The notes under the pieces: model-generated | Databases searched by the model: none | Told to the model about the DNA's origin: nothing | Seen by the model: only the letters and a program-made list of their open reading frames with translations | Virus record (IMG/VR): IMGVR_UViG_2541047679_000011 | Source of the DNA: a virus | Taxonomy: Duplodnaviria > Heunggongvirae > Uroviricota > Caudoviricetes | Direction: 5' to 3' (one strand) | DNA length: 10,969 nucleotides | Program-made: the position numbers and the translations under genes | Shown: piece after piece, positions 1 to 10,969 of the stretch | Numbering within the stretch: the stretch's first letter is position 1 | Layout: the number at the start of each line of letters is the position of its first letter

Positions 1-603
1 GTGCTGATTGGCTATGTAAGGGTATCAACAAATGACCAGAATACAGACCTGCAACGAAACGCTCTTGTTTGTGCAGGATGTGAACAAATATTTGAAGATA
101 AATTAAGCGGGACAAAGACAGACCGACCGGGATTAAAACGCGCTTTAAAGCGCCTTCAAAAAGGTGACACGCTGGTTGTCTGGAAACTGGATCGCCTCGG
201 GCGAAGCATGAAACATCTGATTTCTCTCGTCGGGGAACTACGGGAGCGAGGAATTAATTTTCGCAGTCTGACCGACAGCATAGATACATCTTCTCCAATG
301 GGGCGTTTTTTCTTCCACGTGATGGGTGCCCTGGCTGAAATGGAACGTGAATTAATTGTTGAACGTACACTGGCCGGACTGGCGGCAGCGCGTGCACGGG
401 GGCGCACAGGCGGACGTCGACCGAAGCTGACAAAAGAACAGCATGAGCAAATAGCAAGGCTGATCAAAAACGGGCACGACAGAAAACAACTGGCAATAAT
501 TTACGGCATTGGTATATCGACGATTTATCGTTACCACCCCGCAGGAGAATCAAGCGGAACAATAGAGAAGAGTCAGGAAACAAATAAATATCCTCCGGCA
601 TAG
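1..603 (+). CDS. Serine recombinase / site-specific DNA invertase, Hin/Gin/Pin/Cin family
   Basis: 200-aa ORF with GTG start at window position 1. The N-terminus MLIGYVRVSTNDQNTDLQRNAL carries the catalytic Ser in the YVRVST motif typical of resolvase/invertase enzymes. The C-terminal helix-turn-helix (QLAIIYGIGISTIYRY) and the 190-200 aa length match Pin/Hin/Gin. Upstream sequence, including any RBS or crossover site, lies outside the window. Confidence 0.9.
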   Translation: MLIGYVRVSTNDQNTDLQRNALVCAGCEQIFEDKLSGTKTDRPGLKRALKRLQKGDTLVVWKLDRLGRSMKHLISLVGELRERGINFRSLTDSIDTSSPMGRFFFHVMGALAEMERELIVERTLAGLAAARARGRTGGRRPKLTKEQHEQIARLIKNGHDRKQLAIIYGIGISTIYRYHPAGESSGTIEKSQETNKYPPA

Positions 604-1835: not shown

Positions 1836-4652
1836 TCAATCTTTATCGTAAAAACTGCCACGTCCGGCACGGGCGCGCCGTTCCATCTCTGCCCTGACCA
1901 TTTCACCGACCAGTTTCGCCAGTTCGCGGGGATTCTGCGTAACAACGTTATGCAGATGGACATGAATTTCACCACCAAATCCGGAGGCAACAGGCTCCCG
2001 GTTACGGGAAGTTACAGGAACTGATGCCACTGGCGATCGTATGGCCTCCGCCACCGGGCGGGAGCTGGCCGCAACAACAGGGACCAGCGCCGGAGGCAGC
2101 GGAGCCGGGACCACGGGGGTGATATTAATTGCGGGGGCAGGCTTACTGACCTGCGCAATCTTCCGCTCCTGCCACTCCCCACGAACAGCAAGTGCGCGGG
2201 GCAGGTTCTTAAAGACAATATCGCCGGGGCCAATGCGTTTTTTCGTCTCATCAACCAGCTTACCTGTGTTATCAGCAATTTTGCTGAGTCTGCGTAGCGT
2301 CCCGGTATTGCTGTCTGTGAGCGGTTTGTTGTCTTTGGGTTTATCACCTCCGGTGCCATTGCCATTTTCCACAGGCTTCGGCGGATTGATTTTCGCCAGG
2401 TCCCCCTGAAGCAAGGCAACCTTGTCCTGAAGAATGGCCGCACGCTGTGCGTCTTCGATTTTCTTGCGCGCCCTTTCCGCTTCATCCGGAAGGACGCCAA
2501 GTTTTTCAAGTATCCACGCCAGCGTATCCAGTAGCATTTTTGCAGGTGTCAGAACAAGTTGTAACGCACCGCCAAGAACGTTACCGAATATCTCGCCAGC
2601 ACTGGTACATTTATCCAGCGTTTCCTTGCTGGACTCCATCGGTGACAGCAGCGATTTAAACCAGTTAAACACCAGGCTGATCCCGCTTCCGATTGCGTCA
2701 AAAACAGGACCAAACCGTTCAAAGGTTTCGCGCAACGGGGTCAGCCTTTCCATAATCCCGCTGAACACCCCGGCAAAAAATGCCCTGATGGGATCCCAGT
2801 ATTTCCAGATAAGAACGGCAGCTCCGGCAAGCGCAGCCACGATAAGACCAACCGGACTGAACAGCGCCCCGATAGCGCCTCCCAGTAAAGAAACGGAACC
2901 CGTCACCATTCCCCACAGCGCAGGCAACACCCTGACGACATTCATTGACCGGGTAAGAATGTCAAAACCAAGACGCAGGGTGGCCAGCTTCCCGTAAAGC
3001 ACCCCAATAACCAGCGACAACGAGCCAATCGTTGCAGTCATTGCCAGCAACGCACCGCCTGCTATCAGTAGCTGGCGCGTCAGCACCGGATGGGCCTGCG
3101 CCAGCGAGGTGATTTTTTCAAGCACCCGCGTGAGCCACTGCGTGACAGAACGCAGCGGACCGTCAACCAGATCACTGATGCGAATACGAAGACCTTCCCA
3201 TGCGCTGTCGAGATTTTTCAGGTCCCCATCAAGATTATCGGCCATTACTTTTGCGACGCGATCGGCCTCTCCCCTTGCCCCCTGCAATTCTCTGGTCAGT
3301 TTTTGCAGCTCTCCTGAACCAGCCGCCGCAACAAGCGTCTGCAAACCAACGAACGCCTCTTCTCCGGCGATGTCCTTGAAGAAGGAAACCTGGTCCACCT
3401 GTCCGTATTTTTGTGTCGCCTTATAAAGATCAAGCAGCACATTCTCCATCGGGCGCATTTTGCCTCTGGCGTCAGCAACTGACACTCCCAGCTCTTTCAG
3501 CGCATCAGCCGCAGCTTTTGGCGGTGATGCAAGGCGGGACAGACTTGCGCGCATGGCCGTACCAGCATCGCTTCCGCGAAGACCATTATTGGCAAGCATC
3601 CCGGCCATGGCTGCCGCTTCTTCAAGACTGATACCAAGTTTTGCGGCAACCGGACCGGTATACTTCATGGTTTCGCCCAGCGCGCGTAAATCAGTATTGG
3701 TCCGGGTGAATGCCGCTGTCAGCGTATCGCCAACCCGGTCCATTTGATCGGCTGTCAGGTTGAACTGTGTGAGGATATTGGAGCCTATATCAGCCGTCTC
3801 GCCGAGTTCGACGCCACCTGCCAGCGCCATATTAAGAACACCGGGCAATGCGGCCTGAATGGCCTGCGGAGTAAAACCAGCCATTGCCAGAAAGCTCTGC
3901 CCACTGGCGGCATCACTCGCAGTAAACTGTGTTTCAGAGCCAAGTTTTAACGCCTGCTCACGCAGCGCCTTAAACTGCGGGCTGTTTTTGTCGATTCGCG
4001 TCAGTGCCTGAACGCGGGACATCTCTTTGCCGAACCCGATCGCAGGCTGCAAAAAACGCCCGGCAGCATAGCCGCCCGCCGCTGCCGCACCAATTGCCAG
4101 TGCACCACCTGTTTTCAGTTTTCCCGCTGTTTCCTGCGCGCGCGAATACCGCTCACGCGCCCGCGTTACACGCGCAAGCGCCTGCCGTTCGCGTTCAAGC
4201 TGGTTGTTGTACTGTTCGGTGCGTCTGATGGCCTGCTGGATGGTGTTATCGCTGCCTGTCAGGGAAATGCCGTGGCGTTTCAGCTCTCCGCCAAGCTCCC
4301 GCATTTTTTGAATTTCCCGTGTGCGCGATTCATTCAGGCGTTCAAGCCGGGTGCTTAACTGCTGCATCAGCTTTTGTTGTTTTTCGCTGAGCACTGTACC
4401 CGTGCGTTGTAACTGATTAAGGGCGTTAAGCTGGCGTCGTGCTTTCACGATGCCCGCATCCGCTTTACTGACAGCGTCACGGGCGCGCTCAAATGAACGC
4501 GCCTGACGCTCGAGATTTTTGATCGCCCCCTGCGTTCGCTGGATGGAGTCACCAAACTGCCCCATCAGGCGGCGGGCGTTTTCGGCAGGCCGGGTCAGCC
4601 TGTCAACGGCGCTGAAAGCGACCCGGATATCAAGAGTCTTCATTATCTGCAT
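1836..4652 (-). CDS. Phage tail tape measure protein (P2 gpT-like)
   Basis: 938-aa ORF with a coiled-coil, Q/R/E/L-rich N-terminal half, a central cluster of hydrophobic Gly/Ala-rich helices (LLIAGGALLAMTATIGSLSLVIGVLYG..., AALAGAAVLIWKYW) and a Pro-rich C-terminus, as expected for a tape measure protein. It follows the E/E' pair. An alternative start at ATG 4641-4643 (MKTLDIR) has better SD spacing. Confidence 0.9.
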   Translation of the reverse strand: MQIMKTLDIRVAFSAVDRLTRPAENARRLMGQFGDSIQRTQGAIKNLERQARSFERARDAVSKADAGIVKARRQLNALNQLQRTGTVLSEKQQKLMQQLSTRLERLNESRTREIQKMRELGGELKRHGISLTGSDNTIQQAIRRTEQYNNQLERERQALARVTRARERYSRAQETAGKLKTGGALAIGAAAAGGYAAGRFLQPAIGFGKEMSRVQALTRIDKNSPQFKALREQALKLGSETQFTASDAASGQSFLAMAGFTPQAIQAALPGVLNMALAGGVELGETADIGSNILTQFNLTADQMDRVGDTLTAAFTRTNTDLRALGETMKYTGPVAAKLGISLEEAAAMAGMLANNGLRGSDAGTAMRASLSRLASPPKAAADALKELGVSVADARGKMRPMENVLLDLYKATQKYGQVDQVSFFKDIAGEEAFVGLQTLVAAAGSGELQKLTRELQGARGEADRVAKVMADNLDGDLKNLDSAWEGLRIRISDLVDGPLRSVTQWLTRVLEKITSLAQAHPVLTRQLLIAGGALLAMTATIGSLSLVIGVLYGKLATLRLGFDILTRSMNVVRVLPALWGMVTGSVSLLGGAIGALFSPVGLIVAALAGAAVLIWKYWDPIRAFFAGVFSGIMERLTPLRETFERFGPVFDAIGSGISLVFNWFKSLLSPMESSKETLDKCTSAGEIFGNVLGGALQLVLTPAKMLLDTLAWILEKLGVLPDEAERARKKIEDAQRAAILQDKVALLQGDLAKINPPKPVENGNGTGGDKPKDNKPLTDSNTGTLRRLSKIADNTGKLVDETKKRIGPGDIVFKNLPRALAVRGEWQERKIAQVSKPAPAINITPVVPAPLPPALVPVVAASSRPVAEAIRSPVASVPVTSRNREPVASGFGGEIHVHLHNVVTQNPRELAKLVGEMVRAEMERRARAGRGSFYDKD

Positions 4653-5736: not shown

Positions 5737-6920
5737 CAGGCACCTCCCAGCACCGCAAATGCGGGACCAAAGAATTCATCAGTAAACGACTGGTAAAGCT
5801 CCATGTCTTCCAGCGGAGGAACGGGCGTATATTTGTAGCGAATACGCACACGCCCCTGACGTAAATTCGTGGTGCTGTTATCCACGATGTCATACCAGCA
5901 CTCCGCGCCAATCAGTTTCCCGGCAGTAACCAGTGAATCCAGTTTTGCCCTGATGGCACTGATAACATCCTTCACGTTCGCAGGCGTCAGTGGACTGTCG
6001 ATGGTTTCAAACTGCGCTTCCGCAATTGAATCAGCCAGCACCTGTGCGGTTCGGGTATACACCTCAAAGATGTAGGCGTTCGTTTCCGGTGTGCGGTTGC
6101 CCCAGAAGCGGAACCCGTTGCGACGAATAATGGTCGTGATTTCTTTGTTGTTGAGGCTGTTGGCATCGCTGTCTTCGGCCTGCAACGACCAGAACACATG
6201 CCTGGACATCCCCAGCACATTTTTAACCGGAACGTTGGACAGTGATTTGTGCCATCCCTGCTCATGGTCAATGTACGCACGAAGGCCGCACGCATAGGCA
6301 GGCGCGGGGAACGTTTCGTTTTTGCCACTTTTCGGGTTGTAGGCGATGAAGTCCGGCCATAAGAGCATCACCTCACGTTCATTGAATTTCTGGCGGTAGG
6401 TAATCGCCTCAGCCATCGTGTTACAGCCGTGACATGAGGCATACACAAACGCGCGCAGTTTACCCGCAATCACGCACAGGGATTTTGTTACCGCCTCCGT
6501 GTCCAGCTCCGGCGCGGCCAGAATACGCGGACGGTATCCGATGCTTTCATCCTGCTCTGCAACAAGCAGCGCATACATCCCCGTATAGCTGCCGTCAGAT
6601 TCAGAACCACCGATAACCAGTTGATCCTGCGTTTTTCCGTCTTCTTCTTTGTGTTCAGCCACGCGAACGACGATCACCTTTGTGCTCACCTGGTCTGCGA
6701 TGGCCTTAAGCGCACGATAAAGCGTCCCCGTTGTTCCGCATTTTCCCAGCACGTCATTGACGCGGGTCAGCAGTGTGGGCTTGTTCAGCGGGAACAGCTC
6801 CGCGTCCGCATCATCCGCCGTTGCCACGATACCGATAACACTGGAATCAACATCATTAATCGCTGTTACCAGGTCGGTACTTTCCGTAACACGGGCACCA
6901 TGAAAACGAGTTTCACTCAT
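5736..6920 (-). CDS. Contractile tail sheath protein, P2 gpFI-like
   Basis: 394-aa ORF with strong resemblance to P2 FI across its length (FPLNKP, KLRAF, WPDF, QGWHKSLSNV, IRRNGFRFWGNRT, YTRTAQV, YTPVPPLE). An AAGGGG SD lies 9 nt upstream of the ATG. Confidence 0.92.
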   Translation of the reverse strand: MSETRFHGARVTESTDLVTAINDVDSSVIGIVATADDADAELFPLNKPTLLTRVNDVLGKCGTTGTLYRALKAIADQVSTKVIVVRVAEHKEEDGKTQDQLVIGGSESDGSYTGMYALLVAEQDESIGYRPRILAAPELDTEAVTKSLCVIAGKLRAFVYASCHGCNTMAEAITYRQKFNEREVMLLWPDFIAYNPKSGKNETFPAPAYACGLRAYIDHEQGWHKSLSNVPVKNVLGMSRHVFWSLQAEDSDANSLNNKEITTIIRRNGFRFWGNRTPETNAYIFEVYTRTAQVLADSIAEAQFETIDSPLTPANVKDVISAIRAKLDSLVTAGKLIGAECWYDIVDNSTTNLRQGRVRIRYKYTPVPPLEDMELYQSFTDEFFGPAFAVLGGA

Positions 6921-7077
6921 AGCTTCAGCCCCTTGTATCCGTTAAATGATTCGGCAACAATCATCACCCACCACGCGCGTAATCTCACCCCTGCGCCGTT
7001 CTCCCGACCCGGCGACAACAAAAAGCAGTAACCCCCTCCGCACGCACATGCGACCATGCCGCACAGGGAGGGAACAG
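6921..7077. promoter_or_regulatory. Divergent FI / D intergenic region; presumed location of back-to-back late promoters
   Basis: 157-bp gap between the divergent start codons of FI (6918-6920, minus) and D (7078-7080, plus). P2 late operons are driven by Ogr-dependent promoters, but no clear TGT-N12-ACA Ogr box was found by eye, so the call is positional only. Confidence 0.3.
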
Positions 7078-8187
7078 ATGACCGATACCACCATGCAATT
7101 GCTCAGTCAGGGCACAGACCCCGTGAAAATGCCGGATTTTGATATTCTCGCGGAGGGTAAAACGCTGTCAGGCGTGGCAGAGCGCCTGATGAGCCTGTCA
7201 CTGACCGACAACCGGGGATTTGAGGCGGACCAGCTCACCATCACGCTGGATGATGCGGATGGTCAGTTGCAGCTACCGCCACGGGGCGCGTGCCTGACGG
7301 TTCTCATTGGCTGGAAAGGAGAACCGCTGACAGAAAAAGGCACTTACATTGTTGATGAAATCGCTCACGAAGGACCGCCGGACAGGCTGACTGTTTCAGC
7401 CAGAAGCGCAGATTTTCGGGATGAATTTAACGTTAAACGTGAGGTGTCCTGGCATGATGTGACCGTTGAGCGTGTGGTATCCGCCATCGCTCATCGGTAT
7501 GGTCTGAAACCGCAAATCAGCGAAATGCTGATGGATATCGAAATCGACCACGCCGACCAGACCGAAGAAAGCGACATGTCCTTTCTTACGCGCATGGCGG
7601 AAATGCTGGGCGCAATCACCACGGTAAAAAGCGGTAATCTGTTATTCATTATGCCAGGCGGTGGCGTGAACGCACAGGGCCAGCCGTTGCCATCGTTCGC
7701 CATTACACGCAGCAGCGGCGATCGCCATCAGTTCCGCATTGCTGACCGCGAGGCGTATACGGGTGTACGCGCCTACTGGCTTGATCTTAATTACGGGAAA
7801 AAGAAAAAAGTCAGCGTGAAACGCCGCAAACCGCCAAAACCCAAAAAGGAGAAAAGCAGTAGCCGTGAAGGTGATTATATGGAAGGCGCGGAAGGCAATG
7901 TGTTTGTGTTACGCAAGACTTATCAGAACGAGCAGGCAGCAAGACGCGCAGCGGCGGCAAAGTGGCAGCAGCTACAACGCGGAGCCGCATCATTCTCCAT
8001 CATGCTGGCACGTGGACGCGCAGAACTCTACCCCGAAATGCATGGCACGGTAACAGGATTTAAAAGCGAGATTGATAATCAGGACTGGATTATTGCGAAA
8101 GCCGAGCACACCATTGATAACAGCGGCTTTACCACGCAGCTTGAGCTTGAAGCAAAAATCCCGGAATGGATAGCAGAAACAGAGTGA
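7078..8187 (+). CDS. Phage late control / tail protein D (P2 gpD family)
   Basis: Translation from ATG 7078 (GGGAGGG SD 6 nt upstream): MTDTTMQLLSQ...PDFDILAEGKTLS...LSLTDNRGFEADQLTITLDDADGQL...GW..., matching gpD-family proteins. The track ORF starting at 6946 adds 44 N-terminal residues with no SD and would occupy the divergent promoter region. Contains an unusual K/R-rich insert (GKKKKVSVKRRKPPKPKKEK). Confidence 0.85.
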   Translation: MTDTTMQLLSQGTDPVKMPDFDILAEGKTLSGVAERLMSLSLTDNRGFEADQLTITLDDADGQLQLPPRGACLTVLIGWKGEPLTEKGTYIVDEIAHEGPPDRLTVSARSADFRDEFNVKREVSWHDVTVERVVSAIAHRYGLKPQISEMLMDIEIDHADQTEESDMSFLTRMAEMLGAITTVKSGNLLFIMPGGGVNAQGQPLPSFAITRSSGDRHQFRIADREAYTGVRAYWLDLNYGKKKKVSVKRRKPPKPKKEKSSSREGDYMEGAEGNVFVLRKTYQNEQAARRAAAAKWQQLQRGAASFSIMLARGRAELYPEMHGTVTGFKSEIDNQDWIIAKAEHTIDNSGFTTQLELEAKIPEWIAETE

Positions 8188-8536: not shown

Positions 8537-10120
8537 ATGGCAAGTAAAGCTAACCTTGTTAATTTGGATGCGATGATTTCAAGAGAGGATTTCTCTGCTC
8601 AATCCGATAATGATTTATCTTTCGAATCTATACAAAATATAGCTATGAGAGATATCGGAATGTTGTCTGGCCTACTCAGAAAACCAGATTTTCAGAGAGA
8701 AACAAATCACTGGACTCCAGAGCAAGTAGTTTCATTACTAAAGAGTTTTGTCACAGGTGATTTAATACCATCCGTGATTTTATGGAAGAGTTCTTTTGTG
8801 TTTGTTATAGACGGTGGTCATAGACTTAGTGTTTTAAGAGCATGGAAAGAAAATGACTATGGTGATGGCACTATATCGCAAAAATTCTTTGGAAATAGTA
8901 TTTCCGGAGAGCAAAGAAAGATCGCACAAAAAACAAGAGAATTGGTTGACTCCACAGTTGGTAAATGGTCTGAGATAGAAAGAAAAATGCAGGATTCTAA
9001 TAATGACCATGATGAGAGTAGAAGGCTTACAAATATTTACGTAAGGGCTTTGCAAGTCCAGTGGGTTAAAGGTGATTCCGATAAGGCAGAAACGTCTTTT
9101 TTCAATATAAATAAAAAAGGTACTCCTTTAGATGAGGTTGAGGAAACTTTACTTAGGCATAGGAAGAAACCTATATCTATCGCTGCGAGAGCAATAATAC
9201 GAGCAGGAAAAGGACATAGATACTGGTCCTCTTTCCCTGAGGATAAGACTAAAAAGATAGAAGAGCTTTCCTCAAATATAAACTCCTCTCTTTTCGATCC
9301 AGACGTTAAATCTCAAATTAAAACACTCGATCTACCTCTGGGTGGCTCACGCGGTGTGAGGTTAGCTCTTGATATCTTAATAGATCTTATGTCTATTTCC
9401 GTGTCCCAGAGCGAAAATTATCAAAAAGAATTGCTTAATCAAATCGAAGATTCAGATGGAAGCGAAACTGTTGTTGTTCTGGAAAAAACCGCAAAATTAC
9501 TAAATTGGATTACTGGAAATGACAAGGGCAGCTTAGGATTACATCCGGCCGTGTATTTTTATAGTGCATCAGGCAGACATGTGAATCCTATGTTTTTAGG
9601 GACGACTCTGTTTATAGCGAAAAAATTAAAATTTAATGATAAGAACTTCTTCAAAAAATTCACAAGTATTAGGTTTAATTTAGAGAAAACTCTAATAAAC
9701 AATAAGTCTATGCTAGCATCGTTAGTGAACAGAGCAGGACATAAGAAAAGAACTGAGTATTACTCTAATTTATTTGAGTCAATGATTGATTTCCTTCTTG
9801 AGGTAAAAAAGAAAGACAAAAGCATGAGTGATTTCAGCCTTACAGAAAGTGAAATACTCCAGCTTGCTCACTTTGAAGGTAATATCCTATCTGGGACAAG
9901 TATCAGCAATGCAACTAAAATTAGTGAGGAAGCGAAGAATGCTGTATTCATTGATACTGCATTAGCTTCAGCAATTACATGTCCTATCTGCCAGGGATAT
10001 TTAGATCCTTCAAAATCTGTCTCATATGATCACATCAAAAGAGTTGCAGATGGTGGTAAAGGTTCGGCAAAAAATACTCAGTTAACTCACCCGTATTGCA
10101 ATATGTCTGTCAAAAATTAG
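8537..10120 (+). CDS. Two-domain nuclease: N-terminal DUF262/ParB-like (DGQHR-type) domain plus C-terminal HNH (His-Me finger) endonuclease motif; GmrSD/BrxU/SspE-like candidate anti-phage defence protein
   Basis: 527-aa ORF with AGGA SD 8 nt upstream. N-terminal motifs KPDFQRETNHW and FVIDGGHRLSVL match the DUF262 signature (xQRxxxW ... DGQQR/DGQHR). The C-terminus CPICQGYLDPSKSVSYDHIKRVADGGKGSAKNTQLTHPYCN is a classic HNH pattern (CxxC...DH...GG...N...H..CN). GC content is about 35-38%, against about 57% in the neighbouring tail genes. Confidence 0.85.
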   Translation: MASKANLVNLDAMISREDFSAQSDNDLSFESIQNIAMRDIGMLSGLLRKPDFQRETNHWTPEQVVSLLKSFVTGDLIPSVILWKSSFVFVIDGGHRLSVLRAWKENDYGDGTISQKFFGNSISGEQRKIAQKTRELVDSTVGKWSEIERKMQDSNNDHDESRRLTNIYVRALQVQWVKGDSDKAETSFFNINKKGTPLDEVEETLLRHRKKPISIAARAIIRAGKGHRYWSSFPEDKTKKIEELSSNINSSLFDPDVKSQIKTLDLPLGGSRGVRLALDILIDLMSISVSQSENYQKELLNQIEDSDGSETVVVLEKTAKLLNWITGNDKGSLGLHPAVYFYSASGRHVNPMFLGTTLFIAKKLKFNDKNFFKKFTSIRFNLEKTLINNKSMLASLVNRAGHKKRTEYYSNLFESMIDFLLEVKKKDKSMSDFSLTESEILQLAHFEGNILSGTSISNATKISEEAKNAVFIDTALASAITCPICQGYLDPSKSVSYDHIKRVADGGKGSAKNTQLTHPYCNMSVKN

Positions 10121-10377: not shown

Positions 10378-10638
10378 ATGTTCCGTTGTCCGCTTTGTGG
10401 CGCATCTGCCCGTATCCGCACCAGTCGTCCGGAAAATGATTCAAACACCGTGCGGCAAAAGTATTACCAGTGTAACAATCTGGAATGCGGCGTATGCTTC
10501 TCAACACTGGAAGCTTTCCATAAATTCACATCAAAACACGCCTCCGGCGTTCACTCTTCAGAAGGTATCCCGTGGCATGAGCTGCCAGCTTCACACAGGG
10601 GAAACAATCAGATGAGCTTGCCTTTACCTCAGAATTAA
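10378..10638 (+). CDS. ogr: Ogr/Delta-family zinc-finger late transcription activator
   Basis: Translation MFRCPLCGASARIRTSRPENDSNTVRQKYYQCNNLECGVCFSTLEAF... shows the CxxC...RTSR...YxQCxNxxC pattern of P2 Ogr. AGGGAGG SD 6 nt upstream. The 86-aa ORF is somewhat longer than the 72-aa P2 Ogr. Confidence 0.8.
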   Translation: MFRCPLCGASARIRTSRPENDSNTVRQKYYQCNNLECGVCFSTLEAFHKFTSKHASGVHSSEGIPWHELPASHRGNNQMSLPLPQN

Positions 10639-10828
10639 CAGGCAGAATTGCCGGAGCAACAAAAAAGCGATAGATTACGCGCGGGTGCCTTTCGGCTGAT
10701 GGTCGGAGGGAATACCCGAAGGTCAGATGTGGAAAGGCCCCGGAAAACACTTTTGTTTAACCGAGGCCCTAACCGTCTACCCTAAGCAAGTGATAGGTTA
10801 GCGCCTCCCCGAAAAAGGAGCAAGCGCT

Positions 10829-10969
10829 ATGTCGCAAAAATCGCTTACGGCCATCACGTTCTGCGTGACGGCAATCCTCATCATCTGGATGCTGCACGGT
10901 TCGCTGTGCGAAATACGGATGAGCTTCTGGGGAGCGGAGTTTGCGGCGTTCTTACAGTGTAAGCAGTAA
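10829..10969 (+). CDS. Hok/Gef-family type I toxin-like small membrane protein (46 aa)
   Basis: Not in the supplied ORF track (under 60 aa). ATG 10829 with AAAGGAG SD 8 nt upstream and TAA at 10967-10969. Translation MSQKSLTAITFCVTAILIIWMLHGSLCEIRMSFWGAEFAAFLQCKQ has a single N-terminal TM helix followed by SLCEIR...E(F)AAF, closely matching the Hok signature (…SLCEIR…REVAAF…). Confidence 0.65.
   Translation: MSQKSLTAITFCVTAILIIWMLHGSLCEIRMSFWGAEFAAFLQCKQ

Follow-up and report, generated by a model that had tools for sequence, protein, structure and literature searches.

The end of this prophage sequence raises three questions: whether the small ORF that closes it, downstream of the late-gene activator gene ogr, encodes a Hok-type toxin under the control of an antisense RNA, whether that gene belongs to the phage or to the bacterial host, and how the toxin would be translated in an allele with no mok-like leader ORF. 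The window, as we call the whole stretch of DNA that was analysed, comprises 10,969 nt of a virus of the Caudoviricetes (IMG/VR record IMGVR_UViG_2541047679_000011), and the features at its ogr–hok end are collected in Table 1.

Table 1 Features of the ogr–hok end of the window, in window positions
Feature	Position	Strand	Details
ogr, late-gene activator	10378–10638	+	86 aa; Pfam Ogr_Delta 52.4 bits; fixed upstream neighbour of the hok module
Predicted weak hok promoter	10648–10676	+	Putative −35 TTGCCG (10648–10653), 17-nt spacer, −10 TAGATT (10671–10676)
Predicted hok mRNA 5′ end, 'tac'-like element	10683–10700	+	GGGUGCCUUUCGGCUGAU; first position of the RF01794 model falls on 10683 (GGGUGCC)
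hok mRNA 5′ leader	10683–10828	+	Full-length match to RF01794; colinear with the hokC and R1-type leaders
Upstream ORF, frame 1 nt off hok (R1 mok offset)	10699–10785	+	ATG at 10699; closed by TAA 10783–10785
Upstream ORF, hok frame	10727–10801	+	24 codons; ends with TAG 10799–10801; GAAGG 4 nt before its ATG
Predicted Sok RNA	10727–10787	−	About 59 nt, running from about 10787 to 10729; start placed from promoter geometry
Predicted sok promoter	10795–10823	−	Putative −35 TTGCTC (10823–10818), 17-nt spacer, −10 TAACCT (10800–10795)
Hairpin sequestering the hok SD	10800–10828	+	AGCGCCUCC ... GGAG CAA GCGCU; in every predicted fold
hok SD sequence	10815–10820	+	AAGGAG, 8 nt ahead of the ATG; read from the sequence
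hok coding sequence	10829–10969	+	46 aa; N-terminal hydrophobic helix (residues 6–22); invariant Cys27 and Cys44

The Hok peptide and its coding sequence

A sequence-only reading of the window had proposed a 46-aa ORF with a strong SD (Shine–Dalgarno) sequence, encoding a toxin of the Hok family with a single TM (transmembrane) segment, and both points are borne out. The translation of the ORF, MSQKSLTAITFCVTAILIIWMLHGSLCEIRMSFWGAEFAAFLQCKQ, matched the Pfam profile HOK_GEF (PF01848) over positions 5–42 of 42 with 29.9 bits (gathering score 22; E-value 4.1e-7), and its residues 1–46 aligned with positions 2–49 of the 50 positions of PHROG 251, 'MokW-like host killing', with an E-value of 1.3e-22. 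Kyte–Doolittle hydropathy reached a maximum of 2.44 across residues 6–22. The nearest named NCBIfam model was HokA (NF007290, an equivalog), which gave 34 bits against a cut-off of 89; HokA itself is ruled out by this score, and with so wide a shortfall the peptide represents a separate subfamily. No PADLOC model matched the hok peptide. Like the toxin of R1 hok/sok (parB; relatives flm, srnB and pndA), the window peptide has a TM helix, the SLCEIR motif and two conserved cysteine residues; unlike the R1 toxin, it has 46 residues rather than 52 and ends AEFAAFLQCKQ. On the profile matches, ORF 10829–10969 is a gene for a type I membrane toxin of the Hok/Gef family.

Conservation of the ORF as coding had been named beforehand as a check, as had alignment to the Hok families. 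A search of 5.8 billion proteins returned 67 homologues, nearly all of 46 aa, the 46-aa homologues coming from Escherichia coli, Shigella, Salmonella and Klebsiella oxytoca and being named 'Hok/Gef family protein'. Cys27 and Cys44 were invariant in 17 of 17 diverse homologues, and the tail AEFAAFLQCK was invariant or nearly so. Comparison of the window gene with the copies at two related loci, L014 and L058, revealed eight and seven synonymous changes respectively, with no nonsynonymous change in either case, and pN/pS between the window gene and its most distant copies was 0.29–0.39. This pattern is that of a coding sequence evolving under purifying selection, as judged from the aligned copies. 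Longer products of 59–81 aa in the homologue list (P0026, P0032–P0034, P0001, P0005 and P0007) trace to hok copies in which the frame shifts after ...SFW (WERSLRRSYSVSS...) or the stop codon is lost; as stop-loss and frameshift variants, they indicate that some hok copies are decaying.

The gene had also been described as unannotated, which is correct only for the ORF track on which that description was based. The peptide has a RefSeq entry, WP_000078916.1 ('Hok/Gef family protein'), in E. coli SK1144, the records of phages P88, P88_4B11, 500465-2 and Chuche label the gene 'MokW-like host killing', and PHROG 251 covers it. Four complete E. coli genomes carry a 331-nt region of the locus with 100% identity, and matches to it were found in 1750 of 5426 genomes, with roughly 1200 E. 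coli genomes at 90% identity or more. The identical peptide is LRP137 (72_1621) in Table S2 of Escalera-Maurer et al. (bioRxiv 10.1101/2025.08.07.668861); it belongs to a high-abundance cluster, Hok cluster 72, and was among the homologues tested for toxicity in that work. Induction was toxic for 42 of the 45 Hok homologues tested, and the three non-toxic ones were sequences other than 72_1621 (bioRxiv 10.1101/2025.08.07.668861), so the test that the sequence-only reading had called for, toxicity on overexpression, has already been run elsewhere. At the protein level, the window peptide does not differ from Hok cluster 72, WP_000078916.1 or PHROG 251. Databases and the preprint already record this gene and its family, along with the prophage enrichment and the toxicity of this exact peptide, and with the gene annotated in databases and the peptide assayed, the module is an ordinary one. 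The preprint deliberately kept Mok, Sok and mRNA structure outside its analysis, and its text makes no mention of ogr, P2-like, Peduovir or Xuanwu (bioRxiv 10.1101/2025.08.07.668861). A literature search on a link between ogr and hok in P2-like phages returned nothing relevant.

The predicted hok mRNA and its antisense partner

The Rfam family RF01794 matched the plus strand of the window at 10683–10842 (model positions 1–157) with 43.2 bits and an E-value of 2.4e-8, under the gathering score of 59. As controls, the sense strand of K-12 hokC, opposite the annotated sokC, gave 118 bits and an R1-type plasmid locus gave 87 bits; in the R1-type plasmid, the match begins at the mRNA 5′ end and stops at the hok ATG. 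RF01794, although named 'sok', is therefore a model of the hok-sense leader and not of the sokC strand. Its strand calls are easily misread and need care. The hok-sense matches of the model included 402–554 (−) of locus L005 and 232–403 (+) of locus L003. SnoRNA-like Rfam matches on the minus strand of the window had E-values above 1 and were dismissed as chance.

Between alleles lying in unrelated flanks, homology starts at the −10 box of the predicted hok promoter (TAGATT or TAGAAT), which in the window sits seven nucleotides upstream of the predicted 5′ end at 10683, and it stops just past the 3′ UTR element AAGGCACCC. A consensus promoter scan returned no promoter above its threshold on either strand; the hok promoter matches the consensus at 8 of 12 positions, and the −10 boxes of both the hok and the sok promoters are weak. 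Both promoters are thus predicted from homology and conservation only.

The window lacks the 3′ end of the transcript, and we took it from the corresponding locus of E. coli SK1144 (L001), which served as a proxy for the window prophage, being 98% identical with it over 6.3 kb and 100% identical over the hok region. The full-length RNA (L001 6045–6400) had a predicted folding energy of −158 kcal/mol with a z-score of −7.4. In both the minimum-energy and the centroid folds, the 5′ sequence GGGUGCCU was paired with the near-3′ sequence AGGCACCC; the 3′ UTR partner, in the element AAGGCACCC, lies at L001 6388–6396, about 57–65 nt past the window end, and is followed by a terminator at L001 6419–6446. 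The closing helix between the two ends and most of the inner helices were kept in a consensus fold of 32 distinct alleles. Changes within this fold were mainly switches between G-C and G-U, with two-sided changes in 14 of 113 pairs, a thin covariation due to the close relationship of the alleles. When the RNA was shortened from its 3′ end, the 5′ end was predicted to refold on to 10701–10717, as the tac/fbi and tac/ucb model of R1 predicts. In every fold the hok SD was paired with CCUCC (10804–10808), and these pairs were kept across alleles with G-C/G-U switches.

The sequence-only reading had suggested that an antisense partner might lie on the minus strand over the 5′ leader, and homology to the loci of R1 and K-12 agrees with this. 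The predicted sok promoter has the geometry of TTGCGC-17-TATCCT on the complementary strand of the R1-type locus. Its −35 box was TTGCTC in all of the 31 leader alleles except the Stx-phage copy (TTGCCT), and its −10 box was kept. When, as an independent check, the annotated ends of K-12 sokC were carried over through the leader alignment, they fell at window positions 10785 and 10727, within 2 nt of the predicted Sok. The predicted position of Sok derives from homology with R1 and K-12 sokC. The predicted RNA would have a 5′ tail of ~11 nt, a hairpin (GGCCUCGG...CCGGGGCC) and then CUUUCC, with a weak U-tract. Its predicted fold, −24.5 kcal/mol with a z-score of −2.3, was only modestly better than that of shuffled sequence. 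For the sok-like promoter and terminator on this strand, the search for which had been proposed earlier as a check, TTGCTC-17-TAACCT and the hairpin are predicted at the position of sokC, whereas the scanner found no promoter and the U-tract is weak.

The leader is nearly invariant save for two patches, one at 10773–10787 under the 5′ tail of the predicted Sok and the other at 10745–10760 in its hairpin loop. Several discrete allele types of the leader occur, one of them with a compensated alternative hairpin (GAGTCAACTTTAACGTTAACCC). Two variable patches of this kind are as expected of specificity determinants, and their positions fit a diversification of Sok and hok between co-resident cassettes.

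The window module thus resembles R1 in its colinear 5′ leader and, in predicted folds, in the pairing of its 5′ and 3′ ends and the sequestered SD, as well as in a predicted antisense RNA of ~60 nt with a promoter of the form TTGCxC-17-TAxCCT between the target region and the hok start. It differs from R1 in being carried by a phage rather than a plasmid and in having a leader under the Rfam gathering threshold. The leader of K-12 hokC/mokC/sokC is likewise homologous to that of the window.

Mechanism, role and the translation of Hok

We consider it very probable, by homology with R1, that the module is an RNA-controlled, phage-borne membrane toxin that would fire when the supply of Sok stops. 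Following the mechanism described for R1 hok/sok (PMC4147584; PMC9841398), the weak promoter at 10648–10676 would give a stable hok mRNA of ~400 nt starting at 10683, and pairing of its 5′ end with the 3′ UTR element just beyond the window would lock the RNA in an inert form, with the hok SD held in its local hairpin. Slow trimming of the 3′ end would then free the 5′ end, which would refold on to 10701–10717 and so open the leader. A 59-nt Sok, transcribed on the minus strand (about 10787 to 10729) from the promoter that overlaps the hok SD, would base-pair with the leader, shut off translation and lead to cleavage by RNase III. Once the supply of Sok ended, Hok, with 46 residues and one TM helix, would enter the inner membrane and the cell would be killed or lysed. 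The phage would likely gain in that its prophage is retained, that other phages are excluded or that lysis on induction is helped. Since P2-type prophages are, classically, not SOS-inducible, retention or exclusion is slightly favoured over lysis help. The documented roles of hok/sok include post-segregational killing and exclusion of T4 (bioRxiv 10.1101/2025.08.07.668861).

A main role in lysis and phage release on prophage induction, rather than in addiction or defence, has its precedent in hokW-sokW of the Stx2 prophage Sp5, a prophage-borne hok/sok system like that of the window. Its toxin and antitoxin activities have been shown experimentally and depend on RNase III and Hfq; it speeds growth arrest and doubles the release of Sp5 after mitomycin C, and sokW RNA vanishes on induction (PMC8621323). 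PHROGs groups the window peptide with MokW-like proteins, and a copy of the window cassette with 83% identity is carried by lambdoid Stx phages in another neighbourhood. However, HokW is a different Hok of 51 aa, and the precedent comes from a lambdoid phage, whereas the 46-aa Hok of the window belongs to a P2-like one. Moreover, the trigger in a prophage that is not SOS-inducible would have to differ. We regard lysis as rather less likely than not to be the main role.

The R1-like control that we favour leaves a question of translation, because R1 requires mok to be translated to at least the hok SD, and premature mok stops upstream of hok abolish toxicity (PMC9841398). As had been read from the sequence, the hok frame is closed in the window by TAG 10799–10801 and only two short ORFs lie upstream (Table 1). 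That TAG, at −30 to −28, closes the hok frame in 36 of 36 alleles checked. The furthest-reaching upstream ORF of the window allele, 10727–10801, ends 16 nt before the hok SD and was not conserved in the Stx-phage or Salmonella diarizonae copies. With TAA 10783–10785 closing the other ORF, the window allele has no upstream ORF through the hok SD, so that the absence of a canonical mok, also anticipated earlier, holds for this allele. Unlike R1, moreover, the window lacks a start codon where R1 has its mok AUG; the site equivalent to the R1 and mokC starts had none in the window, nor did it have one in the copies of the Stx phage and S. diarizonae. K-12 mokC, by comparison, provides an intact in-frame extension from 57 nt upstream of hokC, whereas the equivalent frame of the window is closed by the TAG. 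The offset between mok and hok in R1 is 58 nt (PMC9841398), and mok is in frame with hok in the R1-type plasmid copy and in K-12. Since the frame relation differs among loci, we took as the criterion not the frame but an ORF that reaches the hok SD.

By this criterion, 62 of 87 sister loci had a read-through ORF, in the frame offset by 1 nt, crossing the hok SD and start codon and beginning at ATG −130, ATG −103 or GTG −100. It was absent from the other 25, namely the 16 loci with the window allele and nine others, through TAA 10783–10785 or its equivalents; L014 and L058, both in this class, stop at the same codon as the window with TAG instead of TAA. Among deposited phages, P88, Chuche, P88_4B11 and 500465-2 lack the read-through ORF, and PhiR44_2 and Shae_phiSM have one. 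Its presence or absence flips with changes of 2–3 nt in the variable patch under the Sok 5′ tail (about 10773–10787).

Purifying selection appears to act on the toxin in the lineage formed by the window allele, P88, Chuche and the Stx-phage copy, although no leader ORF crosses the SD there. Tentatively, and with somewhat less than an even chance, we suggest that Hok translation in this lineage is independent of the mok coupling that is obligatory in R1, the leader being opened either through a short upstream ORF that does not overlap hok or simply by refolding of the RNA. Given the absence of an SD-crossing ORF, translation would either be triggered by ORF 10727–10801 or need no leader ORF. 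The short ORF may act as such a trigger, as a ribosome terminating on it would, in the modelled fold, sit on the anti-SD arm.

The R1 result also allows another reading, in which the interrupted leader ORF means that Hok is not translated from its native RNA and the cassette, broken by TAA 10783–10785, is an inert passenger heading for decay. The 25 loci with no upstream ORF reaching the SD, as against 62 with one, would suit such a reading, as would the frameshifted or stop-lost copies in some genomes, and chromosomal hok loci have been reported to be incapable of post-segregational killing (bioRxiv 10.1101/2025.08.07.668861, introduction). However, the class lacking the read-through ORF is itself under strong purifying selection (eight synonymous to no nonsynonymous changes between L001 and L014, and seven to none between L001 and L058), which gives a weak indication of continued Hok expression in this class. 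The four deposited phages named above as lacking the read-through ORF share this layout, and all of the predicted RNA elements are intact. We thus consider a silent hok improbable, and a toxin that is still expressed under R1-like control remains the preferred reading.

The prophage right arm and the edge of the window

The window is the right arm of a P2-family prophage, with tail genes followed by gpD (6946–8187), a GmrSD-like gene (8537–10120), ogr and hok. The hok gene is carried by the phage genomes P88, Chuche, PhiR44_2, P88_4B11, 500465-2 and Shae_phiSM, and among the 80 IMG/VR relatives for which loci were counted (of 310 IMG/VR hits), 74 have hok about 194 nt after ogr, in agreement with the earlier view of a phage-linked module. 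In Chuche, gpD is followed by ogr, hok, com, methyltransferase, the attP region and int. Downstream of hok, the SK1144 locus matches Chuche up to 6456 and again at 6472–6521, so that L001 6300–6521 is of phage origin, and the host DNA found downstream of ihfA restarts only at 6596; the junction between prophage and host thus lies 190–265 bp past the hok stop codon. By these comparisons, hok belongs to the phage, that is, to P2-like, P88-type prophages, and not to the host. That it is instead a host locus marking the integration site, as the sequence-only reading had also entertained from its position next to the prophage end, and as its place as the final gene ahead of that end and the several hok loci of E. 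coli chromosomes might suggest, is highly improbable and was rejected on the gene order of Chuche, with further phage genes, attP and int after hok, the position of the host junction in SK1144 and the empty K-12 site, a 100-bp ihfA–btuC spacer with no hok.

The ORF does end exactly at the window edge, as had been remarked, but the coincidence is an artefact of the record. In 46 of the 80 related IMG/VR loci the sequence ends exactly at the hok stop codon, and over its final 3141 nt the window equals the end of IMGVR_UViG_2541047899_000010 (L038). We attribute this edge to trimming of the source provirus contig at its last gene call, which cuts ~120 nt from the transcription unit (the hok 3′ UTR with its pairing element and terminator) and ~200 bp from the prophage.

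Other features of the arm vary among relatives. The GmrSD-like protein (8537–10120, plus strand) has 527 aa, with a Pfam GmrSD_N match of 49 bits, a weak C-terminal HNH match and a match to PHROG 29172 (function unknown), and is likely to be a type IV restriction or defence gene product. Its gene lies between gpD and ogr in only 4 of the 80 related loci, and in 17 others gpD was not found within 3 kb upstream of hok, so the gpD–ogr interval has the look of a cargo slot with variable content. Another such slot is the stretch from hok to attP (L002 4860–5802; L095–L098 about 2096–3033; L001 6457–6471), holding com and a DNA methyltransferase gene in Chuche, a zinc-ribbon/'TagO'-annotated pair in PhiR44_2, 500465-2 and Shae_phiSM, and nothing in SK1144. 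The gpD ORF (6946–8187, plus strand) encodes 413 aa from its first ATG, and the Chuche annotation has 369 aa; RefSeq gives for SK1144 only a 267-aa 'VgrG/Pvc8 family' CDS and a pseudogene fragment on the opposite strand. Since the PHROG tail-protein match begins at residue 43, the true gpD start is probably internal. In addition, hok loci 98% identical with the E. coli phage version, two of them adjoining ogr, were found in assemblies titled Planococcaceae bacterium UBA3378 and Vagococcus sp. WN89Y, and Xanthomonas pisi DSM 18956 has an 857-bp contig with a partial copy of 72% identity; these loci (L006, L007 and L010) are probably enterobacterial contamination.

Taken together, the ogr–hok pair is a stable landmark of the P88-like right arm, with variable cargo slots on both sides. 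A provirus caller that trims to the final gene boundary halves the cassette and discards the 3′ UTR element on which its interpretation depends. The significance of the locus beyond such bookkeeping is small, and the one point in it that is not trivial concerns alleles such as this one, in which Hok would have to be translated with no leader ORF reading through the SD.
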